A stretch of DNA of 64,000 bases from a bacterium (GCA_021781215.1 JAJXXC010000004.1:66975-130974); one strand, 5' to 3'. Positions 24,276-41,794 are shown, counted from the stretch's first letter. The notes: generated by a model from the letters alone, not told the origin. Translations and numbers: made by a program.

Positions 24276-25394
24276 CTATTTAGGACTAGCTATTTTCTCC
24301 CACGGGAGTTGGCTTTTACCGAAATGACCATACGCTGAAGTATCCGAATATATCGGTTTTCTCAAATCCAATTGTTTAATTATTCCACTTACAGACGGAT
24401 CTATAAGATCATCAACAAATTTATATATCGACTCAAGTGATGTTAGCTCAGTTCCAAAAGTATCAATGTTTAACATTACAGGGCTCTTAGCACCTATATA
24501 GTAAGCAAGTCCTACTTCGACTTTTGACGCTAATTTTGAAGCAACTATATTTTTAGCAATATATCTAGCGGCATAAGCACCAGACCGATCAACTTTGCTA
24601 GGATCCTTACCACTAAAGGCACCACCTCCAACCCGAGCAAAGCCTCCATAACTATCAACTACAATCTTTCTACCAGTTAACCCACAATCAGAACTCGGGC
24701 CAGGAATATTCCAAATGCCAGTTCCATTTACAATCACCCGGTCTCTGTTAACGCTATAATTAAACTCAGCTAATATTGGGCTAATAATTTTGGTATATAC
24801 GTCCTCAAATATTTGTTCTGAAGTTACCTCTTCGCTATGAGGAACCGCAATAGTTACATGAGACACAAATTTCGGTTTATCGTCCTCGTAAGCAATGACT
24901 ACCTGAGCCTTACCATCAGGACGCAAGAATGACAACTCGCCAGACTCTCTTACTGAATCTATCTTTTTAGTTAATCTGTGTGCAATTGTTATTGGAGTTG
25001 GCATTAGTTCCTTAGTCTCATCACAAGCGAAGCCAAACATCATTCCCTGATCACCTGCTCCTTCAGCGTCAACTCCGACTGCAATTTCAGGAGACTGTTG
25101 ATGGATAAAATTATCGAGCTTTGATTCGTAGCTAAAACCCCAGTCATTATTTATATAACCGAGTTGTTTAATTTTATTTCTGGCAATTTCTTCAAAATTA
25201 ATTTTAGCAGTAGTGGTAACCTCACCCGCTAAAACAATGTGGTTGTCTGCAACCAGAGCCTCGACGGCAACTCTTCCGTTTGGATCTTCGGCTAGAACTG
25301 CATCAAGGATGGCATCGCTAATCCCATCACAAACCTTATCCGGATGACCGGCACAAACAGATTCACTGGCGAAATATGATATATTTTTTGACAT
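24276..25394 (-). CDS. metK: S-adenosylmethionine synthetase
   Basis: 372 aa with GHPDK, GAGDQGMMFG and GGGAFSGKDPSKVDRS motifs. Confidence 0.95.
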   Translation of the reverse strand: MSKNISYFASESVCAGHPDKVCDGISDAILDAVLAEDPNGRVAVEALVADNHIVLAGEVTTTAKINFEEIARNKIKQLGYINNDWGFSYESKLDNFIHQQSPEIAVGVDAEGAGDQGMMFGFACDETKELMPTPITIAHRLTKKIDSVRESGELSFLRPDGKAQVVIAYEDDKPKFVSHVTIAVPHSEEVTSEQIFEDVYTKIISPILAEFNYSVNRDRVIVNGTGIWNIPGPSSDCGLTGRKIVVDSYGGFARVGGGAFSGKDPSKVDRSGAYAARYIAKNIVASKLASKVEVGLAYYIGAKSPVMLNIDTFGTELTSLESIYKFVDDLIDPSVSGIIKQLDLRKPIYSDTSAYGHFGKSQLPWEKIASPK

Positions 25395-25395: not shown

Positions 25396-25556
25396 AAAAA
25401 ATCCTTTCTATGATTAGTTTTTTAGCTAACTAACGAGAAAGGACTGCAATTCAATGCAAAATATCTTCCCCATTAGTTAGACTAATTGGGCTAGATTTAG
25501 CACCTTACACTAATTGCAGGTTGCTGGCGTGTCATCGAGCTAGGTCTCTATTCGCA
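25396..25556 (-). promoter_or_regulatory. SAM riboswitch (SAM-I clan, reduced P2) with a terminator/SD-sequestering hairpin, in the metK leader
   Basis: The minus strand reads GCGAAUAGAG..GAUGACACGCCAGCAACC..AAGGUGCUAAAUC..CCCAAUUAGUCUAACUAAUGGG..GAAGAUAUUUUGC. This contains the conserved GCAACC/GGUGCUAA core, a P4 hairpin, and P1 closure. It is followed by the stem UCCUUUCU(25443-25436)/AGAAAGGA(25409-25402), U6, then the metK ATG. Confidence 0.65.
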
Positions 25557-25695
25557 CTCTTTATATTTAAATTTTAAATTAAACGTACGTGTCATTAATT
25601 AGTGACAATACGGTTATTCTAGCATTAACATTTTAATAATTCCACTTTTTATATTTCTTAATAAAATATAACAAGATATAATCAGTAGTTACTGT

Positions 25696-25769
25696 TGGGA
25701 GTTGGCCAAGCGGTAAGGCACTGGGTTCTGGTCCCAGGATCGGGGGTTCGAATCCCTCACTCCCAGCCA
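25696..25769 (+). tRNA. tRNA-Gln (anticodon CUG), CCA encoded
   Basis: Manual cloverleaf: acceptor TGGGAGT/ACTCCCA (U1:A72), D arm GCCA-AGCGGTA-AGGC, anticodon arm CTGGG-TTCTGGT-CCCAG, T arm GGGGG-TTCGAAT-CCCTC, discriminator G plus CCA. Total 74 nt. Confidence 0.9.
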
Positions 25770-27334
25770 AGAGATAATTTTTCGTCTTTCAACAAGGTAT
25801 AGAATGGCTCTGCTAAGGAGTAATCAACTATTTTTATTCCATCAAAATGTAGGTTCAAAAACACATTGCGTATAATTATGTCTCGTTGAACCATTGTTCC
25901 ATTGTTGAACCTTTTAGCCATAGTTTGAACCAGTGTATTAAACTCTTCTGTCGTGAAAGCTTGTATTGACACTTTTTCTAGCTTTAGATTGTTATCTTCA
26001 ATCTTAGCTGTTTGGCTTGTTATTGTTCGCATATTTTCAGATATAGAGATCTGTATTTCTTCTTTCATTTTTGTATCTCTTATTACCAGTAATTGCTTAC
26101 CAAAATCTTTATTGTCGGTTCTCAACCTTGTTATATAGGCTTGCAAGCTTATATTCTCACCCCTAAGAGCTTGTTTGCGACTAGCTGATAACTCCTTATT
26201 TTCAGCCAAATATTTCTTATATACCTTTCCTGTGAGTTTAGACGAGACTTCTTTAAGAACTTTACTGGCTGCATCAGACACCACGATTGCCCTAACGTCT
26301 TTGGGCTTACGAGGGCAGTCAGTATTTTTGCATTTTGTATAAACATAATACTTGCCGCTTCTACTCTTAGAGCGATAGACAATCAGTGGCCGTTTATCGT
26401 GGCAAGTCTCACAAAACAAGATGTCTCTAAACGGCAAGAAATACTCTAACTTTTTGCCACTCCCACGTTTTCGCTTATAGTTTACCTCTTGAACTTTTGC
26501 ATAAGTAGCTTCATCAGTTAATGGCACAAAATCAGGTAGTAGTTCACGCAAATCTGCCGTACCGTCTGCCTGAACTGCTATGCCGTAATAAAAACTGCTA
26601 TGTTTGCCACTAAACATTCTAGTCAAGTCATTGGTTTTTATTATTCTAATCTTTCGTTCAGCTTTTATGATTTGAGAAAAGTTGTTTGTATTTAGATATT
26701 CAATAATTTCGTCGTGTTTAGCTCCTCTGGCTCTCATTTGCCATGCTTCTTGTATAAGCCCAAAGTTGTTGTTTTCTGTATCTGGTTTGTAGTAACCATT
26801 TTCTTGAATATATCCTAATCTTGGGTAACCTCCTAAACCGCCTTCTCCAAACTTTTTTCTTACCCCTCTTGTAGCTTTTTGCGATAATTCATCAGAATAA
26901 TGAGTTGCCAGCACAAACATTAAACCTAACATCATTCGGCCAGCAGGGTCATTCGAAAATGGCAATGAGAAAAATCTTAAGTCTTTCAACTGACCATTGT
27001 TTATCATATCTAAGATAATGCTGGCTTCAACCATATTACGAGCCAGTCGGTCAGGATGCCATGAAATAATTCCGTCAATCTCACCGCTTTTAACGCGTTT
27101 AATAAGATTTCTGAACTCTGGTCGTTTTTTGGCTATTTTTGCCGATTTACGTTCTTCGATTGGCTTACCGACTAACTTTAAGCAATCTCGCTTAACCAAT
27201 AACATACAGTCGTCTATTTGGTCGTTTATCGATCTGTATTGTCGCTCCAATCCTTCAGTACTCTTACGAGCGTATATAACGTATTTATAGGCTGTTTGGG
27301 GCTGACTTGTTGTGTTGTTAATGTCAGGGTTCAT
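25757..27334 (-). CDS. large serine recombinase (integrase)
   Basis: 525 aa with an N-terminal resolvase catalytic region (YARKSTEGLERQ), a recombinase domain, a Zn-ribbon (CETCHDK...CKNTDCP), and a C-terminal coiled coil. The last 4 codons and the TGA stop lie within the tRNA-Gln 3' end. Confidence 0.85.
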   Translation of the reverse strand: MNPDINNTTSQPQTAYKYVIYARKSTEGLERQYRSINDQIDDCMLLVKRDCLKLVGKPIEERKSAKIAKKRPEFRNLIKRVKSGEIDGIISWHPDRLARNMVEASIILDMINNGQLKDLRFFSLPFSNDPAGRMMLGLMFVLATHYSDELSQKATRGVRKKFGEGGLGGYPRLGYIQENGYYKPDTENNNFGLIQEAWQMRARGAKHDEIIEYLNTNNFSQIIKAERKIRIIKTNDLTRMFSGKHSSFYYGIAVQADGTADLRELLPDFVPLTDEATYAKVQEVNYKRKRGSGKKLEYFLPFRDILFCETCHDKRPLIVYRSKSRSGKYYVYTKCKNTDCPRKPKDVRAIVVSDAASKVLKEVSSKLTGKVYKKYLAENKELSASRKQALRGENISLQAYITRLRTDNKDFGKQLLVIRDTKMKEEIQISISENMRTITSQTAKIEDNNLKLEKVSIQAFTTEEFNTLVQTMAKRFNNGTMVQRDIIIRNVFLNLHFDGIKIVDYSLAEPFYTLLKDEKLSLGWE

Positions 27335-27494
27335 TTATTGCTACTAGTATTACTATACTGCTTTATTTTAGCAAATTTCTAAAGGTATACACATACTTTT
27401 GAACTCTTGCAATTGAACTACTTAGCTTACAAGTTTAGTTTGTCTAGCATTAGCAATACTCTATAAGGTAGATCAGGTGTAAAATTAAATACAT

Positions 27495-29738
27495 ATGAGC
27501 AATTTTAAGAAAAACTCTGATGAACCGATTGTCTCACTCAAAGAAGATAGATTTGGAAGAGAAAACTTTTCTCACACCCTAGCGGATGCGTTGATAAAAG
27601 TGCCAAATAATCAGTCCATGACGGTTGGCTTATATGGTACCTGGGGAAGCGGTAAAACATCAATAATCAACATTGCCAAAGAATATCTAAATAGTAAGTA
27701 CGAAAATGATGTAATTATTGTTGAGTTCAATCCCTGGATTTTCTCATCAGTAGAAAGTCTGCATATGGCTTTTTTTAATTCATTAGCTGTAAAACTTCAC
27801 AAAAAATTAAAAACAAGGGGTCAAGAAGTAGGTGAAGCTATACAAAAATATGGTCAACTTACAGACCCTATTGGTAGTGCAGTAGGAATGTTACAGCCAC
27901 AAGTAAAATCTTTAGCAAAAATAATCGGTCAGGTCATTAGCGTATTTGGCTCTGCCTTAAATAAAACGGAAGATATTAACGCTATCAGAGTTAAGGTCAA
28001 TACAATTCTGGCTTCGTCTGGCAAAAGAGTTGTCGTAGTAATAGATGATATAGATAGGCTAGACAAAGATGAAGTGCATCAGGTGTTTAAGCTAGTCAAA
28101 AACGTAGCCCACTTCAAAAACGTTTCTTATTTACTATCATTTGACCGTGTTGTGGTAGCCGAAGCCTTATCAGAAAGGTATCCAAATAGTCCAAGTTTTG
28201 GCGGTAGCTTTATCGATAAAATAGTCCAGCTACCTCTTTTCGTGCCTAGCGTTGACCAGTTATTACTAAATAGATTTCTTACAGACGACCTTGATAGAAT
28301 CATCTCACAAAACAAACTAGATATAACAGAGAAAGATATGTCTCGCTTCCAGTCTGTTTTCTTCGCTCGAGATGCAGACAAGTTATTTGATACTCCCAGA
28401 AAGGTGGTACGTTATCTAAACACTGTTGACTTCTCTACAGAAAGTCTAGGTATTGAAACTTGCTTTACTGATACTGCCTTAATTGATTTAATTCGTAACT
28501 TCTACCCTGACCTTTATGAAAGTATTGCTTCCAATAAACTATTACTTTTGAATGGGATGCATGGCGATAGAGAAATCGAGAACGAGAAAGCTGCAGCCAG
28601 AAAGGCTGTATTTGGAACTGACAAGCCGTTTGCTATGGAAGCCATGCTTATTCGTGAATTATTCCCTAGTTTTGAATGGGCTTTAGGTGGGTCATCATAT
28701 TCTGGTGATTTTCTAAAAATCTGGGAAGACGAAAAAAGAGTTTGCTCAGAGAAATACTTTAATCGCTTTTTTGCTTATGACATACCAGTAGGTGATGTGG
28801 CAGACGCTAAAATAGATAGCTTCTTATTAACTCTTAGCTCACCAAAAACAACTATACCTATAGCCGAAAAAGCTTTTAAGGATATGAGTAAAAATAGCGA
28901 TCAGGCGTTATTGCTGTCTAAACTAAGAAGAAAAGAAGACGATCTCACTGAGACTGTCAGTAAAAAGCTTTCTCAGGTTATGGTTAATGTTGGCTTTAGC
29001 TTATCGAGACAAAGACAGGCTTTGGTGGGTGATATGTATTCACCATATGTACAATCGGCTATTCTAGCGATAAGACTAACTCGCAACATACAAAATCCAT
29101 ATAAGACACTAGAAAAGTACATAAAAAGCAGCCCAATTGATTATGCTGCTCAACTTTTTAATTGGATTAGAGTAAACACCGAGAAAGACAAAACTACTCA
29201 AGAAGACTTTGAGCCGTTAATTACACTTGATGAACTCGACAATTTAGGCAAGCTGATTGCTAATAGAATTAAGACTTATACCAATACGAAATATATCCAA
29301 ACTGACTTAACGCAAGATGTACCTTTCTTGATGTGGATTTGGCAAAAGTGGGGTAATAAGTCCGACATAAACAACTATTTTGCTAAAAGCTTTAAGAACA
29401 ATCCTGAAAGAGCTGTAGACTTTTTGATGACTTATGTAGGTGATGCTTGGGAGATAGGTACAGGCATAAAAACTCGATCTGAGTTCAGGAGAGAAGCCTA
29501 TGATCAAGTAGCCAAAGTTGTTGACCCTGAAGTTTTTATTAAACCGTTAATGACGCTATACGGTAAGGAAGTAAACGAGGGTGGGTTCAGCGATAGTCGG
29601 TTTGATAAAACTAAAGATTACAAGTTTCAGGTAGCTCAACAGTTCCTGTACATTAACCGTAATAAAGATAAAGTGGATAGTAATAAAGCAGCAGGAACTG
29701 AAGCTATCGAAGGTGAGGTCGTAGATACCGCAATATAA
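27495..29738 (+). CDS. KAP-family P-loop NTPase
   Basis: 747 aa with Walker A GLYGTWGSGKTS, Walker B/KAP motif VVVVIDDIDRLDKDE, and a long helical C-terminal half. Confidence 0.8.
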   Translation: MSNFKKNSDEPIVSLKEDRFGRENFSHTLADALIKVPNNQSMTVGLYGTWGSGKTSIINIAKEYLNSKYENDVIIVEFNPWIFSSVESLHMAFFNSLAVKLHKKLKTRGQEVGEAIQKYGQLTDPIGSAVGMLQPQVKSLAKIIGQVISVFGSALNKTEDINAIRVKVNTILASSGKRVVVVIDDIDRLDKDEVHQVFKLVKNVAHFKNVSYLLSFDRVVVAEALSERYPNSPSFGGSFIDKIVQLPLFVPSVDQLLLNRFLTDDLDRIISQNKLDITEKDMSRFQSVFFARDADKLFDTPRKVVRYLNTVDFSTESLGIETCFTDTALIDLIRNFYPDLYESIASNKLLLLNGMHGDREIENEKAAARKAVFGTDKPFAMEAMLIRELFPSFEWALGGSSYSGDFLKIWEDEKRVCSEKYFNRFFAYDIPVGDVADAKIDSFLLTLSSPKTTIPIAEKAFKDMSKNSDQALLLSKLRRKEDDLTETVSKKLSQVMVNVGFSLSRQRQALVGDMYSPYVQSAILAIRLTRNIQNPYKTLEKYIKSSPIDYAAQLFNWIRVNTEKDKTTQEDFEPLITLDELDNLGKLIANRIKTYTNTKYIQTDLTQDVPFLMWIWQKWGNKSDINNYFAKSFKNNPERAVDFLMTYVGDAWEIGTGIKTRSEFRREAYDQVAKVVDPEVFIKPLMTLYGKEVNEGGFSDSRFDKTKDYKFQVAQQFLYINRNKDKVDSNKAAGTEAIEGEVVDTAI

Positions 29739-29743
29739 GATAT

Positions 29744-30195
29744 TTAATCTGTCGAGGTATCAATCTCAAGCTCAATAGCTTCTGTTTCTTGATAGGTTTT
29801 TGCTTTAGTAACTATTAGCTTCTTAACAAACCTAAACTCTTTAGCTCTCTGTGCGTTACGCTTTTGTCTATCTTGACGGTCTTGCCACCACATGGCTACA
29901 TTTATATCTCCCCAATGTAGTGCTCAATTATGCTCGTAGCTCGGTTTGTAATTGTGTCTTGAGTGGCGGTTGTTTTGTCTCGAAACTCCACATTTTTTCA
30001 TCTCAGTATAAAAGACCGAGCGAGGCACACCAGACTTCACGCAACCCAATGATACGCCGACAGTACATCTACTTCATCACGACTTATCTTTGAGAGCTTG
30101 TCAGTAATGTGCATGCCTTGCAACACCTGAGCCTGTGGGTTGAACTTCTAAACTAGCTCGGCTGTCTTCTCCTCGTAATACTTGCCTTTCTTCAT
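29744..30195 (-). pseudogene. decayed paralog of the HTH gene at 31219..31653
   Basis: Manual translation gives fragments in three frames, interrupted by in-frame stops. MKKGKYYEEKTAELV* is followed by ..KISRDEVDVLSAYHWVA*, then GVPRSVFYTEMKK.., then ..MWWQDRQDRQKRNAQRAKEFRFVKKLIVTKAKTYQETEAIELE. These are colinear with GVSTSTYYKELAS...SRWWIDRQDKLERSAQRAKEYRLIKRLIITKTYQETQSVKLE. DNA similarity is visible between 29770-29890 and 31225-31345. Confidence 0.6.
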
Positions 30196-30282
30196 ATATA
30201 CATTTTACCCCACGTTGAGGTGTAAGATAGGCAGTTAGTATAGTCACGTTATGGACTAGGCTAGGCAACCTTGGATTATATA

Positions 30283-30879
30283 TCAGGGAACTAGCCACTC
30301 GCCAGTGCTTTGCAACAAACCACTTTGGGTTTGGAATTGTATCTTAGCGGCCTTGACGGCATCAGGAACTTGAAATACTACACATCCAGTAGTGCTTTCG
30401 CCGGGAGCTAATGTGTACTGTCCACTATTGAAATTAGTACATTCAGACACACTACTAAAGTCAGCTGTATAACTTTGGTTGTCTGTTCCTATTAGGGTGA
30501 CGTCACTGTTAGCGTCATCATTAAACGCAGCTGTGCCATTATTAACAATTTTTACATCTACTGCGACAAACCTTTTCCCAGCATCAGCAGTAGTATACTG
30601 GTCAACTCCGCTTGCAGGGTCAATCACCTGATTTAGCGTTACTGCTAAGCCTTTGCTTCCACCGACATCTACCGTTGAGCCAACGTGAGCCGTTGAATTT
30701 AATGGACTAGAACTAGGTTTATTGCTACTTGAACTCGTACCAGCCTTGCTTGCAGTTGTAGTTACGGTGGTTTTGTTACCACCAGCAGAAATTGAACCAA
30801 TAATTATTAAGGCCACTATCACACCAATTATACTCGACACTTTATGACGTCTAAAAAAACTTTTTTCCTTACTGCTCAT
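30283..30879 (-). CDS. DUF4352-like secreted/membrane-anchored Ig-fold protein
   Basis: 198 aa with an N-terminal TM helix, an S/T-rich linker, and a C-terminal domain (KRFVAVDVKIVNNG...TLAPGESTTGCVVFQVP) resembling DUF4352. GC content is visibly higher than in the neighbours. Confidence 0.65.
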   Translation of the reverse strand: MSSKEKSFFRRHKVSSIIGVIVALIIIGSISAGGNKTTVTTTASKAGTSSSSNKPSSSPLNSTAHVGSTVDVGGSKGLAVTLNQVIDPASGVDQYTTADAGKRFVAVDVKIVNNGTAAFNDDANSDVTLIGTDNQSYTADFSSVSECTNFNSGQYTLAPGESTTGCVVFQVPDAVKAAKIQFQTQSGLLQSTGEWLVP

Positions 30880-30985
30880 TTGTAAACTCCTAGCTTAACT
30901 TATATCTGTAAAGATAGCACATTAAATAACAAAAATAAACAACTAGTTTATGTAACTATCTGTTTATAATTCTTACCCTAAGTGT

Positions 30986-31213
30986 ATGAGCAATGCACAA
31001 GAACAAAAGTTGATGAAAGCCTTTGGTAAACGAATTTCTGAGGTTCGTAAAAGTCGTGGTGTTACACAACAACAGCTAGCTGAACATATAAATATGAGTG
31101 TTGTTGCTATCGCCTATATTGAAACTGGCAAGCGTTGGGCACGACTTGGAACGTTGAATAAGATAGCCAAAAGCCTGAAAGTAACTGTAGCTAACTTATT
31201 TGAAGGAATATAA
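30986..31213 (+). CDS. XRE-family helix-turn-helix regulator
   Basis: 75 aa with a typical Cro/CI HTH (RGVTQQQLAEHINMSVVAIAYIETGKR). Confidence 0.8.
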   Translation: MSNAQEQKLMKAFGKRISEVRKSRGVTQQQLAEHINMSVVAIAYIETGKRWARLGTLNKIAKSLKVTVANLFEGI

Positions 31214-31218
31214 ATTCC

Positions 31219-31653
31219 CTATTTTGTAAACATGTCTGTTTCAAGCTTAACGCTTTGTGTTTCTTGATAAGTTTTAGTGATGATAAGCCGTTTGATGAGC
31301 CGATATTCTTTGGCTCTCTGTGCACTTCTTTCAAGTTTGTCTTGACGATCAATCCACCAACGAGATGTTTGAACATCGTGTTGCTTTTCAATAGCATCCT
31401 TAACAACTAAGTTGGCAAAGATTGTGGTTTCATTCTGGGCAATAGTCATTTTGTCCGAAAATCTTTTATTACTAGCAAGTTCCTTGTAGTAAGTTGAAGT
31501 ACTGACACCAGATAGGACACAGGCACCACTAACGTTCATACCTTTCCTAAAACAATCAACTAGTTCTCGGACAACCACTGGCGTTATTGCTTTGGGTCGT
31601 CCAACGCTTTTACTAGGATTGTTTATCGCGAGTTGTTGTGACTGATTTATCAT
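31219..31653 (-). CDS. HTH protein resembling a phage terminase small subunit or excisionase-type DNA-binding protein
   Basis: 144 aa with an N-terminal GRPKAITP..HTH (GACVLSGVSTSTYYK) and a C-terminal SRWWIDRQ motif, as in small-terminase-like HTH proteins. Function is not proven. Confidence 0.5.
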   Translation of the reverse strand: MINQSQQLAINNPSKSVGRPKAITPVVVRELVDCFRKGMNVSGACVLSGVSTSTYYKELASNKRFSDKMTIAQNETTIFANLVVKDAIEKQHDVQTSRWWIDRQDKLERSAQRAKEYRLIKRLIITKTYQETQSVKLETDMFTK

Positions 31654-31706
31654 AGTCTTATTGTAACAAGATTCGCTGGTATGATGTAGTATTGGCTAAA
31701 GCTATA

Positions 31707-33290
31707 CTACCTAGCAGGCTGATCATTGACTTCTTTTTCAATGATCAGCATCTTGTTAAAGCTTCTCTCGACACTCTCAATAAATGTGTCTATTACTATG
31801 GGGAAGTCATCTTGTTTAACTACAGCACCGTCGTATATTTGTTCCATTATTATAGTTCTATTTTGGTTAGGAAAAGATATTTTTGTATATTCAATTTTTT
31901 TCTTGCGTGAAGCAGTATAATATGGTTTATTTGCCATCGCCACTCCAAAGCCAAAGTCCATTATTATCTTTGCCATCTTGACACTGTGTATCCTGAGAGT
32001 TCTATCATCGGGCTTATCCAAAGCCATAACCTCTACCTTTATAGCCTCAAGCTTTGATTTGTATTCTCTATTCAGAAGCAAGGTAAGTAGAGTGCCGGGT
32101 TTTGGGAACTCTTTTTCATCAAAGCTAATGTCTTTTCCATAAAGTAAAACCCCGTCCGACCAAATAATAAACCGGTCTTTTTTATAAATTTCTGAGAACA
32201 GATCAGCCTCATTAATAAAGGTTGCATCTACCGGGTATTCTCCAAAAGTTTTTGAATAGCCATTAGTAATTATATAAAAGTTTATATCTGATATATGAGC
32301 CTTAAACTCATTTCTAGCAGCACTTCCCACTAGATAGATCGATACCACAATATTGCCTAGTTCTTTTTCTGCAAACTCAACCATTGGATAGACCATAAGG
32401 TCAAGGGGCGACTTAATTTTGTCCTTACTCGCCTTATTCTCAATGTTCATAGAACCCAAAAACTCAGTATACTTAACCATAATTTTGGCTAACTCAATTG
32501 GATTAGTTTCAATTTTGAAATGCTTAATCAGTGCATCGGCCATCCTTTCGACGGTATATTCAATTTCAGTTATAGTTTTTTGCTGTTTTTTAACTAACTC
32601 TGATCTCAATTTATCATAGGCATCCTTACCTAGCTTCTCCATTCTAGTCTTACCATCCTCTGTTAGTTGCTGAGTAGGTGTTGGTTGAAGCATAATTTTA
32701 GACATTCTTATCTTTTGATAATCACTATTGAGAGCTAGTCTACTTGCAAAGTGATGATGCTGTGTTCTTCTTTTTAGTACAACACCTATTGGGTTATCAG
32801 ATTGTTCCAGCTTCTTTAGCAGTTCGTATACACCTATTTCCCCTAACTTGTCTTTATTCTTTTTGAGAAAACTAGCAAGCCTCATATTTTCTGGTTCAGA
32901 ATAAGCTTTCGGGAAAGGAGGCTCGGCAAACATAAGGTCTAGTAGTCTTAATAATTTGTCTTTGAACTGATGAACGAGATCAAGGAATATGCCATTGTAG
33001 TAGTTAATTAAGTCTTCTGGTTCATGAGTCTTGTGTTTAGTAGTAAGTTTTTCGTTGACGTTTGCAATTAGTTCGGATGTTAGTTTAAGTTCATTCAAAA
33101 CCCTTTCAATTTCACCAGCATATATATACCGATTCTCAAAGACCTTACGCTCAAAGGTTATTCTTTCAATAGCAGCATAGCCCGGTTCATCCATCTCTTT
33201 CTGAAGGTTGAGCATAAGTAAGCTCTGCCTTAACTTGGAGAACTCAGTATCTGGTACTCTTCTACTATTGACTGATACTTCTTCACCCAT
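31707..33290 (-). CDS. nucleotidyltransferase-fold protein with a long helical N-terminal region (possible HEPN-NTase-HEPN architecture)
   Basis: 527 aa with a minimal-NTase signature at aa 319-340, YLVGSAARNEFKAHISDINFYI (GS-x11-D-I-N). Rx4H motifs occur at aa 174-180 (RRTQHHH) and aa 430-435 (RTLRIH). Domain calls rest on motifs only. Confidence 0.55.
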   Translation of the reverse strand: MGEEVSVNSRRVPDTEFSKLRQSLLMLNLQKEMDEPGYAAIERITFERKVFENRYIYAGEIERVLNELKLTSELIANVNEKLTTKHKTHEPEDLINYYNGIFLDLVHQFKDKLLRLLDLMFAEPPFPKAYSEPENMRLASFLKKNKDKLGEIGVYELLKKLEQSDNPIGVVLKRRTQHHHFASRLALNSDYQKIRMSKIMLQPTPTQQLTEDGKTRMEKLGKDAYDKLRSELVKKQQKTITEIEYTVERMADALIKHFKIETNPIELAKIMVKYTEFLGSMNIENKASKDKIKSPLDLMVYPMVEFAEKELGNIVVSIYLVGSAARNEFKAHISDINFYIITNGYSKTFGEYPVDATFINEADLFSEIYKKDRFIIWSDGVLLYGKDISFDEKEFPKPGTLLTLLLNREYKSKLEAIKVEVMALDKPDDRTLRIHSVKMAKIIMDFGFGVAMANKPYYTASRKKKIEYTKISFPNQNRTIIMEQIYDGAVVKQDDFPIVIDTFIESVERSFNKMLIIEKEVNDQPAR

Positions 33291-33305
33291 AAACTTAGCT
33301 CTTTA

Positions 33306-33647
33306 TTATTTCTGTTTCTTTAACACAAGCCTTATTTTGTTTGGCTTTTTCTTCACTAGCCTGATAATGGCTTTATCTTGACTAAAGACGTTTTGCATTG
33401 CCCTGCTTATTACCACATCTAGGTTCAATCTTGCATTGGTTACTGATATTCTTTCAATATATAGGTTGTTACGCCCTTTGTCTGTGGCTAAACTTAGTGT
33501 CATTACTGAGCCATCATCTAATACAATCTCACCATTGTTACCGCTAGCGTCACCAATTTCAATCTCACTTAAGACAGATAATAAATCAGTGATACTCTTT
33601 AGCATTGTTTTTTGTTTACTGGACACTAATGTTTTGTTATAACTCAT
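33306..33647 (-). CDS. hypothetical 113-aa protein, first gene of the NTase operon
   Basis: ORF lies 15 nt upstream of the 527-aa gene on the same strand and has a lysine-rich C-terminus. No recognisable motif. Confidence 0.45.
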   Translation of the reverse strand: MSYNKTLVSSKQKTMLKSITDLLSVLSEIEIGDASGNNGEIVLDDGSVMTLSLATDKGRNNLYIERISVTNARLNLDVVISRAMQNVFSQDKAIIRLVKKKPNKIRLVLKKQK

Positions 33648-33805
33648 AGATTACCCCTCGTTGATACCTATATTTTATAATACTTGCGTTATTGCCGCTA
33701 ATTAAGTCATTTAGCATTTGCCCAAACTTATGCAAGCCAGCCATAACATCAGCACATGTGATATGCTCGGCATTACTAGGTACTGGTTCAAATTGAGTTT
33801 CATTT

Positions 33806-33822
33806 TCCCAGCCACAAGAGAT
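33806..33822 (+). repeat. att-like copy of the tRNA-Gln 3' terminus (candidate attR)
   Basis: TCCCAGCCAcaAGAGAT compared with TCCCAGCCAAGAGAT at 25761-25775. Confidence 0.45.
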
Positions 33823-34045
33823 TCGATCTTAAGCCAAATATCTAGTCACGACATCGTAAAACGTCCTCGACCGTCACCCACAGCAATCATGGATTCGAAC
33901 GTAAGTCAAACATGTAGTATGGTAAATGTATTTTTAGATCTAGTTACTCCGCAGAAATTTTACTTGTTAAAAATTATACGGAAGTTCAATTCCCTAGACT
34001 CCAAAATTTAATATCTATACTATTGGAGTAAACTAGGAGAATAAT

Positions 34046-34756
34046 ATGAGTCACGAGGCAAAAATTCACGAAGCACAGACAAAAATTTTACGAGAACTTT
34101 TATTCTTACCCAAAGCAAATTTCGCATTACTCCAAAAGGCCACAGGTCTAGAGGGTGACCATGCCAAATTCCATATTAAGCGATTAGTTGAGCTTGAATA
34201 TCTTAGCAAATCAAATGGCACCTATTCGCTCAGTATACGTGGTAAGGAATATGCAAATAAGCTTGATACTGACGTCAACACTATAGAACGCCAACCAAAA
34301 AGTACTACAATTTTGATAATTTGTCGTACGAAAAATGGCAAAAAAGAATACATCGCCCAAGAACGTCTAAAAAATCCATACTTTGGTTTTTGGGGTTTCC
34401 CAAGCGGTAAGATTCGCTGGGGTGAATCAATTTACGAAACTGCTGAACGTGAAATGACTGAAGAAACTGGATTATCTGGTGGTAAATGGGAGCATCGCGG
34501 AATTTATCACGAGAGAGTTCGTCACACAAACACAAAAGAAATTATAGAAGATAAGATTTTTCACATTATGTACACCGAGCACATATCAGGTGAATTAATT
34601 GAAAAATTTGAGGGTGGTAGAAATAAATGGATGGAACTAGAAGATATAAAGAAAAATCCTAAACATTACAAAAGCTTTGATATCGAAGCAGAGTTCGCTA
34701 TGCACCCTATCCCATTCATCGAAGCTCTTGACGAATACGACGACGGACAATTTTAA
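34046..34756 (+). CDS. NUDIX hydrolase with an N-terminal winged-helix domain
   Basis: 236 aa with a Nudix box GKIRWGESIYETAEREMTEETGL (GX5EX7REUXEEXGU) and an N-terminal wHTH-like region. Confidence 0.85.
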   Translation: MSHEAKIHEAQTKILRELLFLPKANFALLQKATGLEGDHAKFHIKRLVELEYLSKSNGTYSLSIRGKEYANKLDTDVNTIERQPKSTTILIICRTKNGKKEYIAQERLKNPYFGFWGFPSGKIRWGESIYETAEREMTEETGLSGGKWEHRGIYHERVRHTNTKEIIEDKIFHIMYTEHISGELIEKFEGGRNKWMELEDIKKNPKHYKSFDIEAEFAMHPIPFIEALDEYDDGQF

Positions 34757-34771
34757 TAACACTGTTGGAAT

Positions 34772-34878
34772 CTTATGCTATGCAAAAAAATCTAGACCGA
34801 CATACTCAGCCAATTTGGTAATATATAATCGCAATAACTTCTTAGTCTGAGCGGAAAACTACACCCAAGAGCCTTAGT
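34772..34878 (+). repeat. intergenic mosaic repeat, copy C (3' part of the unit plus the restart AGAGCCTTAGT)
   Basis: CTTATGCTA..AAATCTAGACCGACATACTCAGCCAATTTGGTAATATATAATCGCAATAACTTCTTAG aligns to copy A. AGAGCCTTAGT at 34868-34878 matches 37819-37829. Confidence 0.7.
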
Positions 34879-34892
34879 GTTACAATTTATAT

Positions 34893-35231
34893 ATGGCAAC
34901 GAATAAAACAAAAACATGGAAACCGACAGCAGCAGGAATTATGAGCCTAATAGTCGGCACTTTTACTGTTTACTATCACACGTTTGGCACTTTTACCAAT
35001 CACTGGCACATCCTTAATCTGATCATTCCCGACATCATAGGTCTTATTGCGTTAGTCGGTGGATTTTATGCTATTAAGCGGCACAGATGGGTAGTGGCAG
35101 TAGCCGGTGCAGTTTGTACTATGTATCCACCCCATCCATGGGGCAGTTTAGTATGGACTCCTGTTCTAGGCGTTATTGGTATCGTTCTTCTGATGCAATC
35201 TAAAAAAGAGTTTTCTGATGAAGAACAATAA
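34893..35231 (+). CDS. hypothetical small membrane protein (3 predicted TM helices)
   Basis: 112 aa with hydrophobic segments; no recognisable motif. Confidence 0.5.
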   Translation: MATNKTKTWKPTAAGIMSLIVGTFTVYYHTFGTFTNHWHILNLIIPDIIGLIALVGGFYAIKRHRWVVAVAGAVCTMYPPHPWGSLVWTPVLGVIGIVLLMQSKKEFSDEEQ

Positions 35232-35433
35232 ATTACTCGGTATCCCGACAGTTATATGGCTCCTTCAGCTGTTATATGTTGCTTTAGCACTTGGGTTATT
35301 TGCAATCCTATCACTCAAGCTACATAAGCAGGTACATCAACTGGCGTTTCAGCTTGAGTATGTCTTCATTATGGTCGTTATCAACATTGCTTGGCGTGTG
35401 ATTATCAAAATGAAAAATCCGGATTGGTTTTAA
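35218..35433 (+). CDS. hypothetical small membrane protein
   Basis: 71 aa with two hydrophobic segments; overlaps the upstream ORF by 14 nt. Confidence 0.4.
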   Translation: MKNNKLLGIPTVIWLLQLLYVALALGLFAILSLKLHKQVHQLAFQLEYVFIMVVINIAWRVIIKMKNPDWF

Positions 35434-35436
35434 ACA

Positions 35437-35565
35437 CTTATGCTAACAGAGCTTTCACACTCGCCATCGACACAGGGTCTACAATAAGAGTCAAAGTTCT
35501 GAAATCCGACCATGGTCCCAACCAATTTGGTAATATACAACCACGGTAACTTCTTAGCCCCAAGC
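35437..35565 (+). repeat. intergenic mosaic repeat, copy A (most complete unit)
   Basis: The 5' and middle parts (AGAGCTTTCACACTCGCCATCGA..GTCAAAGTTCTGAAATCCGACCATGGTCCCAACCA) share sequence with copy B. The flank and 3' part (CTTATGCTA, ..CCAATTTGGTAATATACAACCACGGTAACTTCTTAG) share sequence with copy C. Confidence 0.7.
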
Positions 35566-35635
35566 TGTCTTTTGTCTCATACTAATATGGTTTCCCATAT
35601 TTGATAAAACTTGTATTATTAGCAAAGAGAAATAC

Positions 35636-35992
35636 ATGGCAGACATCACAATTGAAAATGACGAATTGATTTTGAAGCTTTCAGCAGTAGAAAAAGCTGA
35701 AGCAGTACACGGCGACCTTCGTGTCCCACTTTCGGAGGTTCAAAAAGTCGAAGTAATAGATGATGCTCTAGAGATGACTCGCATCAAAACAGGATTCAAG
35801 GTCGGAATGAGGGCGCCTGGTTATGCAAGCGTAGCCGTTATCCGTCGTCCAAGATATAAAGCCTTTGTTGCAGTACACCATGATACACCTAAAGCAATTC
35901 GTGTTACCTTAGCAAGTGATTCATATAACGAATGGGTAGTAGGTGTTGCTAACCCAGAGTCAGTACTAGCCAGCCTAAATCTAAAAAAGTAA
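35636..35992 (+). CDS. hypothetical 118-aa soluble protein
   Basis: Clean ORF with locally higher GC and no firm motif. Confidence 0.5.
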   Translation: MADITIENDELILKLSAVEKAEAVHGDLRVPLSEVQKVEVIDDALEMTRIKTGFKVGMRAPGYASVAVIRRPRYKAFVAVHHDTPKAIRVTLASDSYNEWVVGVANPESVLASLNLKK

Positions 35993-36008
35993 CTAATAGT
36001 TAAGATTA

Positions 36009-36094
36009 GGCCAGAAGAGCCTTCACTCTCACCATTGATTCTGAGTCAATAGTAAGGGTCAAAGTTCGAAAATCCGACCTTGGTCTCAGCCAAG
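36009..36094 (+). repeat. intergenic mosaic repeat, copy B; tRNA-Gln-like relic
   Basis: Contains a 5-bp stem with a 7-nt loop, ATTGA-TTCTGAG-TCAAT (36034-36050), with CTG at the anticodon position. Downstream come GTTCGAAAATCC (T-loop-like) and TCTCAGCCAAG (36084-36094), compared with the tRNA TCCCAGCCAAG. The 5' edge GGCCAGA is nearly complementary to the 3' edge TCTCAGCC. Confidence 0.6.
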
Positions 36095-36281
36095 CATAAA
36101 CATTTAGAACACGCTAATGGCATTTAAGCGTTCACGGAACAAAGCATATGTAATGATAACAAAACCTCTACCTTTAAATAGGACAGCAGTCTTCCTTTAA
36201 CTTATATGCACCCCTATTACATCGGCTCAAATATATAACTTTTTACCACGTACACAAGTTTTTTTGGTATGATTTAGCTAA

Positions 36282-37007
36282 ATGACATCGGCAGTAAAAA
36301 TAAATAATCTATCTGTGGTTCTAGGGGGTCAAGTTAATGCCCTAAAGCATATCAACCTAGAAGTCCCCGAAGGTAAGATTACTGGTTTTATCGGACCATC
36401 GGGAGCGGGCAAGACTACTTTAATAAGATGTATAGTCGGCAGACTAGCAATACCCAAGGGATCAGTAGAGGTTTTTGGGTTGACGTCCGGTTCACCGAAA
36501 CTTCGTAGTAGGGTTTCGTATATGACCCAGGAATTATCGGTATATACGGACTTGACTGTAATTGAAAATCTTACATATTTTTCTAGAATGATTGGTCAAT
36601 CTAGGCGTGAAACAATCGACACCGTGAAAGATATTCTACAAACTATTAATATGTCTGATAAGGCGACTACATTGGTCGGTTGCTTATCTGGAGGACAAAA
36701 GCAAAGAGTGTCTTTAGCGATAGCTCTTATCGGTAAGCCAAAGTTAATGGTATTGGACGAGCCTACAATTGGTCTCGATCCGGCTCTTAGAGAAAATCTA
36801 TGGCAGCTTTTTTACAAAATTGCTGCAAGTGGTACGACACTCATAATCTCGAGTCACTCCATGGACGAAGCTAGAAGATGCGACGAATTGGTTTTGCTCC
36901 GTGAAGGAAAAGTAATCGCTTACGATTCCCCAAAAGAGCTACTTCACAAGACAGAAACTAAATCCGTAGAAGAGGCATTTTTAAAGCTAGTAAGTGAGAA
37001 ATCATGA
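36282..37007 (+). CDS. ABC transporter ATP-binding protein (ABC-2/DrrA-like)
   Basis: 241 aa with Walker A GPSGAGKTT, signature LSGGQKQR, and Walker B MVLDEP. Confidence 0.9.
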   Translation: MTSAVKINNLSVVLGGQVNALKHINLEVPEGKITGFIGPSGAGKTTLIRCIVGRLAIPKGSVEVFGLTSGSPKLRSRVSYMTQELSVYTDLTVIENLTYFSRMIGQSRRETIDTVKDILQTINMSDKATTLVGCLSGGQKQRVSLAIALIGKPKLMVLDEPTIGLDPALRENLWQLFYKIAASGTTLIISSHSMDEARRCDELVLLREGKVIAYDSPKELLHKTETKSVEEAFLKLVSEKS

Positions 37008-37744
37008 CTCTGATCAAAACATTCAGTACGGCCGGACGAGTATTACGTCAGCTTAAACACGACCCACGCACATTGTTTTTGTTATTTATTGTGCCCTCCG
37101 TCTTAATTATTGTTCTAAAATATGTATTTAACTCTAGAGCAGAGTCATTCAATTCCATTGCACCAATGCTTCTCGGAATCTTTCCTATGGTTATGATGTT
37201 TTTGATAACCTCAATAGCTACACTGAGAGAACGCCGAAGTGGGACGCTCGACAGACTTATGACAATGCCTATATCAAAGCTCGATTTCGTCCTGGGCTAC
37301 GCCATCGCCTTTTCGACCGTAGCCTTGCTCCAGGCGATAATTACAACCACAGTTATGCTAGGACTCTTACACGTACCGGTTATGGGCGGTACTTTTGCTA
37401 CTATTGTCGGTGCTGTATTTGCTGCTCTGCTGGGGACGGCTCTCGGTTTATTCTCCAGTGCTTTCGCAATGACCGAATTTCAAGCCATTCAGTTTATGCC
37501 AGCTTTCATCTTTCCCCAATTGCTCGTTTGTGGACTATTTGTAGCAAGAGATCAAATGACTAAAGTACTGCAATGGTTTGCCGATATTGTTCCCCTAACT
37601 TACAGCGTAGATGCCATGAAACAAGTAACAACTCAATCCAATTGGACTTATATACATACCAAAGATTTAATTATAGTAGCCTGTTTTACTATTGCAGCCC
37701 TCGTTCTCGGATCGATTACTATTCGTCGTCAATCAAAACCTTGA
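37004..37744 (+). CDS. ABC-2 type transporter permease
   Basis: 246 aa with about 6 TM segments; 4-nt overlap with the ATPase gene. Confidence 0.8.
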   Translation: MTLIKTFSTAGRVLRQLKHDPRTLFLLFIVPSVLIIVLKYVFNSRAESFNSIAPMLLGIFPMVMMFLITSIATLRERRSGTLDRLMTMPISKLDFVLGYAIAFSTVALLQAIITTTVMLGLLHVPVMGGTFATIVGAVFAALLGTALGLFSSAFAMTEFQAIQFMPAFIFPQLLVCGLFVARDQMTKVLQWFADIVPLTYSVDAMKQVTTQSNWTYIHTKDLIIVACFTIAALVLGSITIRRQSKP

Positions 37745-37806
37745 GTACGTTATAGTCATTACTGACATGGTACTAAAACTAGAATACTCATAAAATAGTA
37801 ATACAC

Positions 37807-37829
37807 GGCCAGACCAGTAGAGCCTTAGT
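37807..37829 (+). repeat. intergenic mosaic repeat, copy D (5' edge only)
   Basis: GGCCAGAccagtAGAGCCTTAGT matches the copy B 5' edge (GGCCAGAAGAGCCTT) and the copy C restart (AGAGCCTTAGT). Confidence 0.5.
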
Positions 37830-37900
37830 TTAACTGCTGCATAGATACTTCTGTCTATCTGATCACAGACATGCCGGTATAACCAATATACACTGAGTGT

Positions 37901-38293
37901 ATGAAATATTTTGTTAATAATATAAGCGAACTAACCAACGAAAATTCCGATTATCGACGGGTTATTTATACTACCAACTACACTCAACTTGTTCTAATGA
38001 GTTTGTCACCTGGAATAGAAATTGGTAATGAGATTCACGGACTCGATCAATTTATAAGGATTGAGAGCGGTAAAGCAAAAGTTGTATTAAACAATGGAGA
38101 GAACGAATACGAGCTAAAAGATGATTGGGCGATTATCATTCCCGCAGGAACCTACCATAATCTTACCAATATAGGCGATAGTGAACTAAAACTCTATACT
38201 CTTTATTCACCCCCTAATCATCTTAAAGACACTATTCAGCCTACAAAAGCCGATGAAGTAGAAGATAAATTTGATGGCAAAATTACGATATAA
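37901..38293 (+). CDS. cupin domain protein
   Basis: 130 aa with a cupin-like pattern (G.EIGNEIHGLDQFIRIESG ... IIPAGTYHNLTNIG). Confidence 0.75.
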   Translation: MKYFVNNISELTNENSDYRRVIYTTNYTQLVLMSLSPGIEIGNEIHGLDQFIRIESGKAKVVLNNGENEYELKDDWAIIIPAGTYHNLTNIGDSELKLYTLYSPPNHLKDTIQPTKADEVEDKFDGKITI

Positions 38294-38419
38294 GTAGGTC
38301 TAAGATAATTTCGAACAAAGTGCCAAATAATTCAAACTGGCATGTTTATCAAGGGTTTACATAACAGAAACTATCAACTAAGATTTTACACTCTTAGTCC
38401 GTGATATTTTTCCCCACTA

Positions 38420-38587
38420 TTAACGACGCATCATGAACGCAACGTATAAAACTACATACACTAGAACAATTATAATATTAGCTATTAATCTTCCCCAGAA
38501 TCGATGCCTAAAGAAAAGAATATCTACAGCAACTACAGTAGCCACCATGGCCAAAACATAAACTACAGTTATCGCATTTTTATTCAT
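38420..38587 (-). CDS. possible 55-aa membrane peptide (below the ORF-track cutoff)
   Basis: Manual translation gives MNKNAITVVYVLAMVATVVAVDILFFRHRFWGRLIANIIIVLVYVVLYVAFMMRR*, with two hydrophobic helices. There is no homology evidence. Confidence 0.3.
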   Translation of the reverse strand: MNKNAITVVYVLAMVATVVAVDILFFRHRFWGRLIANIIIVLVYVVLYVAFMMRR

Positions 38588-38706
38588 TCTTTTATTATAC
38601 TCTTCAAAAAAAAAGAATGATATGTATTGCTAAAAAATTCGTAACAGTATGCTCAACCGGGTGATATTTCAGTGTATGATAGAAACATGGAACAAAGATT
38701 AAAATT

Positions 38707-39954: not shown

Positions 39955-40022
39955 TCTTCTGGAGCTAGTTAACGCATAATCATAAGCCCTGCTTGCTACA
40001 CTATAATTTTTTGCTTATAGTA

Positions 40023-40940
40023 ATGCTTATGGATAGCGTATTAGTTACTACCAAACTTTCTAAAAAATATCCAAACGCAAATGTATATGCACTTAAGAAC
40101 CTGACACTTAATGTTGGACCTGGCGAAGTCTACGGTTTTTTAGGACCAAATGGCGCCGGTAAATCAACGGCAATTAGGACGCTGATGAATTTTATTCAGC
40201 CAACAAGCGGTAGCGCAACAATCTTAGGCCGCGATATTATTAAAGATTCTGTAAAAATTAAACAAGAAATTGGTTATCTTGCCGGGGACGGCGCAGTCTA
40301 TAACAAAATGACCGGTCGTCAGTATTTAGAGTATCTAGGCGAGCTGCAACCACCATCCTCCAAGACATACCAGCAAGAACTCACAAAACGTCTCCAGGCC
40401 ACTTTAAATAAACCCCTAGGGTCACTTTCGCGTGGTAATCGACAAAAGATTTCTATCATCCAAGCATTTATGCACCAACCTAAGCTACTTATTTTAGATG
40501 AGCCGAGTAGTGGACTAGATCCATTGATGCAAGAAGTGTTCTATGAACTGATTGCCGAATCAAAAGCTCGTGGAGCTGCAGTTTTTATGAGTAGTCATAT
40601 TTTGAGTGAAGTTCAAAAAATATGTGATCGAGTCGGAATTATTCGTAATGGAGAGCTAGTGACCGAACGAAATATCGCCGAAATGGCTGAAGAGGCTGCT
40701 CAGACTTTTGACTTAACTTTTAAAGATAACCTACCTGTTAGTAAATTAAAAAATCTTGCTTGCGTACAGAAGCTAGTCGAGAATAGTCCTCATAGCGTTA
40801 CCTTACAAGTCAGAGGTGAGCTTGCACCTTTATTCTCGATATTAGCTCAATACACCGTTACCAATATTGATACTCGTACGCTCGATTTAGAAGAAGCCTT
40901 TATGCATTACTATCAGCCCCGAGAGGACAGACATGTTTAG
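40023..40940 (+). CDS. ABC transporter ATP-binding protein
   Basis: Walker A GPNGAGKST, signature LSRGNRQK, Walker B LILDEP. Start set at the in-frame ATG at 40023; the track ORF begins at a TTG at 39993. Confidence 0.85.
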   Translation: MLMDSVLVTTKLSKKYPNANVYALKNLTLNVGPGEVYGFLGPNGAGKSTAIRTLMNFIQPTSGSATILGRDIIKDSVKIKQEIGYLAGDGAVYNKMTGRQYLEYLGELQPPSSKTYQQELTKRLQATLNKPLGSLSRGNRQKISIIQAFMHQPKLLILDEPSSGLDPLMQEVFYELIAESKARGAAVFMSSHILSEVQKICDRVGIIRNGELVTERNIAEMAEEAAQTFDLTFKDNLPVSKLKNLACVQKLVENSPHSVTLQVRGELAPLFSILAQYTVTNIDTRTLDLEEAFMHYYQPREDRHV

Positions 40941-41724: not shown

Positions 41725-41794
41725 AAGATTATCTATTGAATTTTTAAGCAATAGTACTATAGTCACTAAATAGGAGATTCAATTAAAACAAAAA

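Follow-up and report, generated by a model that had tools for sequence, protein, structure and literature searches.

Downstream of a tRNA-Gln(CUG) gene in a bacterial contig, genes of several unrelated kinds are separated by short sequences that resemble the 3' end of that tRNA, which raises the question of whether the region was built up by repeated insertion at a single attachment site. We examined this in a 64,000-nucleotide (nt) stretch of DNA (GCA_021781215.1, JAJXXC010000004.1:66975-130974; hereafter the window), where an earlier reading made from the sequence alone (the sequence-only reading) had proposed a composite island at 25696-36094, formed of an 8-kb recombinase-bearing element and three short modules (modules 2-4), which it described as NUDIX with a putative winged HTH (helix-turn-helix) domain, two putative small membrane proteins and a 118-aa protein. 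The window is 99.9-100% identical to contig DAIEGS010000002.1 of assembly GCA_027356125.1, and the genomes closest to it carry the label Candidatus Saccharibacteria or Saccharimonadales. We consider it highly probable that the locus as a whole is explained by a tRNA-Gln hotspot that carries an 8,045-bp serine-recombinase element, with modules 2-4 as older insertions.

The 8-kb unit is bounded by two exact copies of a 9-bp core, TCCCAGCCA, which comprises the last acceptor-stem bases of the tRNA, the discriminator base and CCA. An empty bacterial attachment site (attB) was found in L116, a contig from a k=31 assembly of run SRR5080639 that was reached by exact-protein look-up with the NUDIX protein of module 2. 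This contig reads CGGGGGTTCGAATCCCTCAC-TCCCAGCCA-CAAGAGATTCG..., with the tRNA 3' end directly on the NUDIX flank, and is 100% identical to window 25741-25769 followed immediately by 33815-34798; since a k=31 assembly cannot join through 9 bp, it is not a false join at the repeat. The converse arrangement was observed in L125 and L126, which carry a sibling element of 81% identity whose ends are contiguous across the same 9 bp. After reverse complementation, L125 positions 711-1113 match window 33418-33822 and 1099-2716 match window 25761-27377, i.e. a homologue of 33418-33805 is followed by TCCCAGCCA and then by a homologue of 25770-27377, and the same junction is present in L126. The corresponding element attachment site (attP) of the window element, obtained by joining its ends in silico, would read ...CATTT-TCCCAGCCA-AGAGATAA. 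The L125/L126 junction is either attP or a junction between tandem copies, and on either account is the product of site-specific recombination at the core.

Four attachment configurations are consequently represented in the sequence data, namely the left and right junctions (attL and attR) in the window, attB in L116 and the attP-like form in the 81% sibling, and they follow the pattern attB x attP giving attL + attR, with arms exchanged at the 9-bp core. Because the site is empty in L116 and the sibling ends are joined in L125/L126, 25770-33814 is delimited as a discrete element and, judged from these junctions, the 8-kb unit is present in some strains and absent from others. Because the 9 bp in which the exchange falls are common to both sites, the tRNA is left native and its trailer alone changes. 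The sequence-only reading had anticipated an empty site in which the tRNA is followed by the ATP-binding cassette (ABC) transporter at 36282; an empty site does exist, but it joins the tRNA to NUDIX instead. It had also placed recombination junctions at every motif copy, which is shown for 25761 and 33806; those at 34805, 35516 and 36084 could be relic junctions, with no presence/absence difference seen there.

The enzyme encoded at the left end of the element is a large serine recombinase, with a Pfam Resolvase domain (PF00239; E=1.1e-22, residues 19-165), a match to the PHROG 95 integrases over residues 5-503 (E=2.5e-47), the catalytic motifs YARKST and DRLARN, and a CxxC...CxxxxC zinc-ribbon signature. 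Homologues at 36-62% identity contain PF07508 (Recombinase) and/or PF13408 (zinc ribbon). NCBIfam CcrB also matches the catalytic domain, weakly and far below its cut-off (E=4.2e-8). The family is present in many assemblies, with organisms named for few of them, for example Woesebacteria (a 39% homologue).

Joining the element ends in silico extends the recombinase open reading frame (ORF) by 55 codons, from 525 to 580 amino acids (aa), and a search with this 580-aa form retrieved P0122 from L125/L126, which is itself 580 aa, 81% identical at 100% coverage. The 55-aa tail differs between the two at 16 synonymous and 18 non-synonymous positions (pN/pS 0.29, Fisher p=7e-5; 0.18 for the protein body), and since the tail is under purifying selection the 580-aa form appears to be a selected product. 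Furthermore, the end of the 580-aa ORF and the beginning of the 113-aa gene have 11 nt in common in both L125 and the window. The sequences of twelve family members (60-85% identity) can be aligned as far as ...SLGW, the core read antisense, and differ from there on; several stop within a few codons and several run on as GGIRTPE, the antisense reading of a tRNA T-arm, and the 55-aa tail is common to the attP-form protein only. As read from the DNA, this demonstrates that the recombinase gene crosses attP and that integration swaps its last 55 aa for a stop from the antisense tRNA, shortening the product from 580 to 525 aa. It is a tentative and rather doubtful further step that the recombinase is switched by its own reaction, such that only the joined-ends form encodes the full 580-aa enzyme, coupled to two downstream backbone genes, and that integration breaks up this operon as it removes the selected tail. 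If true, the integrated form would be biased against re-excision, or altered in activity or stability, and the element would possess a built-in directionality control for a serine integrase.

The tRNA-Gln(CUG), metK and its riboswitch lie at the left edge of the island where the sequence-only reading had placed them, as borne out by ARAGORN, Rfam and Pfam. The left block, metK-RmuC-glycoside hydrolase-PheST and onward, is kept in L088 and L090 (MetK 78-79%), which are syntenic on this side and unrelated in everything past CCA. The tRNA-Gln is identical in the window, L092 and L090, with all sequences diverging directly after CCA, and an alignment of six genomes likewise showed the same sequence up to CCA and unrelated sequence beyond, so that the island starts at the exact tRNA 3' end. 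An unrelated 546-aa serine recombinase, 26% identical to that of the window in the catalytic domain only, lies directly after this tRNA in L092 and L098, which represent the closest other lineage (MetK 93-94%), as well as in L106 and L108; within 13 kb, L098 contains no second core copy. Because relatives carry either unrelated content or a different serine-recombinase element after the same tRNA, its 3' end is an integration hotspot in this Saccharibacteria lineage.

L127 and L128 have siblings of the window element at tRNA-Gln but in different host surroundings, and L130 contains a 6.3-kb sibling with its own KAP nucleoside triphosphatase (NTPase), between CCCAGCCA copies 6.3 kb apart. The left copy in L130 is a 24-nt fragment of the tRNA-Gln 3' end, the surrounding 10 kb containing no tRNA, and the right flank resembles the native trailer of L088. 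The element has either inserted into a relic attachment site or been left next to one; the copies lie at reverse-complement coordinates 10006 and 16310 of this contig (JGI 3300059835). Arrays similar to that of modules 2-4 occur in L008, with a 20/22-nt repeat of the tRNA end ~170 nt downstream, and in L100, with a 21-nt tRNA-end repeat at +176 followed by a native-type trailer and an exact 9-mer at +1646. Between the two L100 repeats lies a toxin-antitoxin-like gene pair, judged from sequences only.

Five motif copies had been reported in the window and all were found in place, with TCCCAGCCA at 25761 and 33806, CTCAGCCA at 34805, TCCCAACCA at 35516 and TCTCAGCCA at 36084, and the gene layout (recombinase element, NUDIX, two small proteins, 118-aa protein) was also as described. 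However, several of the arguments built on them fail. The window contains 16 occurrences of TCCCAGCCA with at most one mismatch, where 8.4 are expected, and six of the exact 9-mer, and finding three plus-strand copies in the 10.3 kb after the tRNA has a Poisson P of 0.11; because the 9-mer is common and this count is not significant, motif copies alone are no evidence of an island, although copies 1 and 2 do sit at synteny and recombination junctions. Divergence beyond every copy, as claimed, does not hold for 34805 and 35516, which have 39 nt at 85% identity in common to the right of the motif, and the 35516 and 36084 copies have 88 nt at 76% identity in common to its left. Likewise, the DUF4352 gene, put at ~50% guanine plus cytosine (GC) by hand counts of single 60-nt lines, which do reach 0.55, was measured at 0.425, and both the 8-kb element and the left core region have a GC content of 0.373. 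GC was therefore rejected as a sign of foreign origin, whereas tetranucleotide composition does set the island apart, with a distance of 0.184 at 26001-34000 compared with 0.09-0.125 elsewhere in the window. The idea of serial accretion at the tRNA thus stands for the 8-kb unit as an insertion and is plausible for modules 2-4, but without its supports from GC, divergence and motif frequency.

We also considered whether the motif copies were decayed tRNA halves or pseudogenes, and ruled this out. When the tRNA 3' end and its flank were aligned by Smith-Waterman across all of the window, nothing rose above background, the Rfam tRNA model at E<=10 found only the real tRNA in the window, and beyond the 9-mer the four non-tRNA copies were no more tRNA-like than random windows (p = 0.11, 0.52, 0.86 and 0.24). 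Long tRNA-derived repeats are in any case not expected, because the enzyme is a serine recombinase.

Modules 2-4 are each followed by a copy of a longer repeat (c3, c4 and c5) in which a tRNA-end-like motif is embedded. The c3 right arm is 85% identical to 35519-35557 in c4, and the c4 left arm is 76% identical to 36006-36093 in c5, i.e. c4 is c5-like to the left of the motif and c3-like to its right, with the partner switching at the motif. Each copy starts 5-20 nt past a stop codon, and the flanked genes are mutually unrelated. No other copy of this repeat family was found in the 64-kb window, and a repeat model run on related loci returned no copies. The 12 nt to the right of c5 (AGCATAAACATT) match tRNA-Gln trailers at 9/12 positions in L095, L096 and L104 and at 8/12 in L088; of the other flank-trailer pairs, almost all score 1-7 and one scores 8. 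This short match gives moderate support to the view that the outermost core copy abuts the ancestral tRNA flank. A second TCTCAGCCA followed by GCATAA, resembling c5, was seen in L104 and dismissed as chance, as it lies inside a 254-aa ORF. Module 2 was also considered as the remnant of an L108-type element, the right flank of copy 2 being like the L108-type right arm at 8/10 nt, and this was set aside because the match is too short.

Taken together, modules 2-4 are probably related small elements that were inserted serially at the tRNA end and are now bounded by relic junctions, a view to which we give somewhat better than even weight. In the proposed scheme, the recombinase would catalyse integration and excision of the 8-kb element, with the 113-aa and 144-aa backbone proteins aiding directionality, or packaging by a helper phage, and the cargo (PifA-like NTPase, DUF4352 protein and 527-aa protein) would protect the host against phage. 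The NUDIX, 112 + 71 aa and 118-aa modules would have entered the same site earlier and since become fixed, and their boundaries would be hybrid junctions, each made of the left arm of one element and the right arm of the next at a degenerate core, and the last copy, c5, would abut the ancestral tRNA trailer. As an extension of the proposed switching of the recombinase, and less likely still, the same enzyme family may service recombinase-less mini-modules in trans, which would make the locus a serine-recombinase cassette array at a tRNA gene. Loss of modules would be diagnosed by the tRNA joined to ATTTGGTAATATA (module 2, or modules 2-3, missing) or to AGCATAAACATTTAG (fully empty site), and a module circle by GG-TC[CT]CA[AG]CCA-ATTTGGTAA running on into the other end of the module.

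A number of observations weigh against this explanation. The attP-like junction comes from the 81% sibling and not from the window element, a tandem junction would account for it equally well, and L125 and L126 are perhaps from one sample; as for excision products, which the sequence-only reading had suggested seeking, the joined-ends form of the sibling was recovered but none was seen for the window's own element. A gene for cell-to-cell transfer could not be identified with confidence, and the window recombinase has no PF07508 or PF13408 match at E<=0.01. Modules 2-4 show no presence/absence difference, the order NUDIX-112-71-118-ABC being the same in every contig recovered (few contigs). 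The core match of unit 1 is 9/9, but those of units 2-4 are just 7/9, 8/9 and 8/9, a quality common by chance in the window. Finally, faint similarity between c4 and c5 extends to the right of the motif too, blurring the argument that partners switch there.

In the main rival view, only the 8-kb element would be inserted and modules 2-4 would be resident genes; the repeat would be local and intergenic, whether regulatory, an RNA hairpin or a small dispersed repeat, and its likeness to the tRNA end coincidental. This is credible enough to be taken seriously, yet in our judgement not likely. The constant module order, the 16 motif occurrences with at most one mismatch, left arms that are not tRNA-like, and the placement of each repeat copy shortly after a stop codon all agree with it, as does the c5 left arm (36016-36090, minus strand), which folds as minus-strand RNA into a long imperfect hairpin of -41.7 kcal/mol (z=-3.75). 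On the other hand, c4 folds no better than shuffled sequence, no plus-strand terminator is predicted, the repeat is found nowhere else in the 64 kb, and its three copies are enclosed by the proven attR on one side and by sequence that resembles the native trailer of four relatives on the other. In addition, the motif sits where inter-copy similarity changes partner, and the flanked genes are unrelated to one another. The apex of the c5 hairpin, ATTGA-TTCTGAG-TCAAT, mimics a CUG anticodon loop, and the c4 version is weaker (z=-1.2). That all motif copies are chance matches and that there is no island at all deserves next to no credence: the motif count is indeed not significant, but the L116 empty site and the L125/L126 joined ends place junctions exactly at copies 1 and 2, where chance is refuted, and synteny breaks at the tRNA end.

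Two further alternatives concern the kind of element involved. The short modules (568-999 bp), each with one or two genes in the same orientation and followed by a 70-120-nt imperfectly palindromic repeat, recall an integron-like cassette array in which the repeats would be attC-like single-strand recombination sites, and the c5 bottom strand does fold better than the top. We rejected this as very improbable, since no tyrosine recombinase is present among the island ORFs, inspection revealed no R''/R' consensus boxes, and the single-stranded DNA folds no better than shuffles (z=-0.6 to -1.7); there are also three copies only. The 8-kb element itself could be a miniature phage satellite, of the phage-inducible chromosomal island (PICI) or phage-inducible chromosomal minimalist island (PICMI) kind, excised by its serine recombinase and packaged by a helper via the 144-aa protein, with defence genes as cargo. 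Small size (6.3-8 kb), an HTH (helix-turn-helix) regulator and anti-phage cargo fit such an element, and the 144-aa protein belongs to the conserved backbone, matches the PHROG terS (small terminase) family at E=3.8e-10 and finds its best structural matches among small terminases, with Pfam Sf6_terminase detected in 16 of 26 family members. Yet HTH_7 is found in nine of the 26, and the protein may simply be a DNA-binding or directionality factor. For the 144-aa model (predicted local distance difference test score 78) the best match, Sf6 TerS, has a probability of 0.98 but is weak (E=0.12, template modelling score 0.35-0.44), the element contains no replication, capsid or pac/cos feature that we could find, and it has no relatives in a viral contig collection. 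We therefore think a satellite unlikely and retain the tRNA-Gln hotspot with an integrative element and older small insertions as the best explanation.

The features of the locus are collected below.

Table 1. Coordinates of the tRNA-Gln(CUG) locus, counted from the first nucleotide of the window
Feature	Position	Strand	Evidence or remark
metK	24276..25394	-	Pfam S-AdoMet synthetase N, M and C domains; last gene of conserved left block
S-adenosylmethionine (SAM) riboswitch upstream of metK	25458..25569	-	RF00162, 56.4 bits vs gathering score 44.4
tRNA-Gln(CUG), integration target	25696..25769	+	ARAGORN; Rfam tRNA 61.1 bits
Large serine recombinase, 525 aa integrated	25757..27334	-	Pfam Resolvase, PHROG 95; TGA stop antisense inside tRNA
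Core copy 1, TCCCAGCCA, attL core	25761..25769	+	Junction common to L116 attB and L125 attP
Integrative element, 8,045 bp with right-hand core copy	25770..33814	.	attB in L116; sibling ends joined in L125, L126
PifA-like KAP P-loop NTPase, 747 aa, putative anti-phage cargo	27495..29738	+	PADLOC PifA; Pfam KAP_NTPase E=5.4e-50
DUF4352 protein, cargo	30283..30879	-	Pfam DUF4352 E=2.6e-18; phrog_806 E=3.9e-23
Cro/CI-type HTH regulator	30986..31213	+	Pfam HTH_3 E=5.4e-13; PHROG transcriptional regulators
144-aa small DNA-binding protein, small terminase- or HTH_7-like	31219..31653	-	phrog terS E=3.8e-10
527-aa protein, cargo	31707..33290	-	Weak Pfam NTP_transf_2 E=9.6e-4, below curated cut-off
113-aa protein, backbone gene, directly downstream of recombinase when ends joined	33306..33647	-	Homologues L125 (65%), L130 (42%)
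P arm of attachment site; encodes 55-aa tail of joined-ends recombinase	33637..33805	-	In-silico joined ORF; P0122
Core copy 2, TCCCAGCCA, attR core	33806..33814	+	Junction position in L116, L125
Module 2, NUDIX hydrolase	34046..34756	+	Pfam NUDIX E=1.7e-14; PADLOC candidate PDC-S07 E=1.3e-7
Repeat copy c3, motif ACTCAGCCA 34804-34812	34775..34845	+	Shortened left arm + 39-nt right arm; nhmmer E=2e-4
Module 3, two small proteins, 112 + 71 aa	34893..35433	+	ORFs; no family matches
Repeat copy c4, motif TCCCAACCA 35516-35524	35438..35557	+	Full left + right arms
Module 4, 118-aa protein	35636..35992	+	ORF; no match in Pfam, NCBIfam, PADLOC, PHROGs
Repeat copy c5, motif TCTCAGCCA 36084-36092	36006..36093	+	Left arm only; probable outermost junction

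Between its ends the element combines a conserved backbone, in the order recombinase-core-113-aa protein-144-aa protein, with cargo that differs among siblings; homologues of the 144-aa protein adjoin the recombinase in L125, L127 and L130. The PifA-like cargo gene matches the PADLOC PifA model (PDLC02361, E=1.2e-82), with residues 5-649 aligned to profile positions 4-667 of 720, and the DUF4352 protein has an additional weak match to a superinfection-exclusion family (Sie-like phrog_8545, E=8.8e-6). Inside the 527-aa ORF, at 32354-32370, the assemblies of two samples break (L006 and L007 end there, L113 and L114 begin), and L113 opens with 59 nt of sequence unrelated to that of the window. 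Because contigs break or diverge at this point, the C-terminal half of the 527-aa protein, which holds the weak nucleotidyltransferase motif, exists in alternative versions among co-existing strains. The viral contig collection was scanned with the recombinase, the NUDIX and 118-aa proteins and the attP junction, with no match.

Several observations concern the tRNA and its surroundings. Contigs of run SRR17201898 break just after the anticodon, with L002 ending at 25731 and L007 starting at 25730; the likely cause is that the tRNA sequence is common to other organisms in the sample, and this break was dropped as a crossover marker, the proven junction being the 9-bp core. In L104, L106 and L109, whose RmuC is 89-91% identical to that of the window, neither metK nor its SAM riboswitch is present between RmuC and tRNA-Gln, so metK is itself variably present at the locus. 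The ORF of the unrelated 546-aa recombinase (L092 1759-3399) reads antisense through the whole tRNA; in L092 its neighbours are an HTH gene and one that weakly matches Replic_Relax. A D-Ala-D-Ala ligase homologue (window 46010-47038) lies 20 kb from the tRNA in the window, 7.4 kb in L088 and 2.5 kb in L009, and because this distance differs among genomes the interval 25.8-46 kb may be a plasticity zone. The genes at 36093-46010 (ABC transporters, cupin, trehalase and MMPL genes) may be lineage-specific additions too; beyond 36.1 kb in the window no junction evidence was found. The ABC ATPase at 36282-37007 is intact (241 aa) in the window and L118 and is split into 148-aa and 86-aa ORFs in GCA_027356125.1 (L005 336-1053), owing to a frameshift or assembly error there, and an exact look-up of this protein returned no record. 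Comparison of MetK with a one-genome-per-species collection yielded relatives at <=66% identity, without usable synteny.

Tandem insertion next to a conserved gene is known from other bacteria. Composite islands of the staphylococcal cassette chromosome (SCC) use CcrAB or CcrC recombinases, insert at the 3' end of rlmH/orfX, are delimited by short direct repeats and include units without a recombinase. By comparison of its organisation, the nearest functional analogue of the present locus would be such an island: both possess a large serine recombinase and abut the 3' terminus of a conserved gene without disrupting it, and both have short direct repeats that mark units and tandem arrays with recombinase-less units (these two, here, on the reading of modules 2-4 given above) as well as accessory or defence cargo. 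In contrast to SCC, the target here is a tRNA rather than a protein gene, there is one recombinase that is only distantly related to Ccr, its ORF crosses the attachment site and the host is a Saccharibacterium. In phages with integration-dependent immunity, of the BPs and Brujita type, attP is located inside the repressor gene and a tyrosine integrase is used. These share with our element an attachment site in coding sequence and a protein C-terminus altered by integration, but there the repressor is truncated whereas here the recombinase loses its own C-terminal 55 aa.

The element likewise resembles PICI and PICMI in being small and integrated, with an integrase, an HTH regulator, a (weakly) small-terminase-like protein and anti-phage cargo, but differs in that no replication module was found in it and no helper phage has been demonstrated. 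The 747-aa KAP NTPase matches the model of F plasmid PifA nearly end to end, but lies within an integrative element of a Saccharibacterium. For integrative and conjugative elements (ICEs), integrative and mobilizable elements (IMEs) and cis-mobilizable elements (CIMEs), tandem accretion at attL or attR is established (PMC5357655). Arrays such as those of ICESt1/ICESt3 also start at a tRNA 3' end and have internal core copies that part the units, as proposed for the present locus, although mostly tyrosine integrases act there, compared with a serine recombinase and a 9-bp core here. The tyrosine integrases of mycobacterial prophages have common cores of 25-76 bp, with 10/15 sites overlapping tRNA genes (PMC8092301), while for the serine integrases of streptococcal IMEs the insertion point is almost always inside a gene, which is thereby disrupted (PMC5357655). 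Islands anchored on a tRNA and enlarged by accretion are a well-known class of object, and it is the pairing of enzyme and target that is uncommon. Less usual here are the tRNA target for a serine recombinase, the use of one target by two unrelated serine recombinases, and the ORF that runs across its own attachment site. A search of the literature found no description of such an element in Saccharibacteria; its coverage was incomplete, and it does not by itself prove novelty.

Mobile elements of Saccharibacteria and of Patescibacteria more widely are poorly characterised, and here one has been defined to the base pair from metagenomes alone, at a tRNA-Gln site that is used by at least two unrelated serine recombinases. 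The PifA-like gene bears on the phage resistance of these epibionts, and the placement of a recombinase gene across its own attachment site, with a tail that is under selection, offers a testable idea on directionality control. Furthermore, a compact serine integrase with a short, defined target in a conserved tRNA could serve as a genetic tool for Saccharibacteria.

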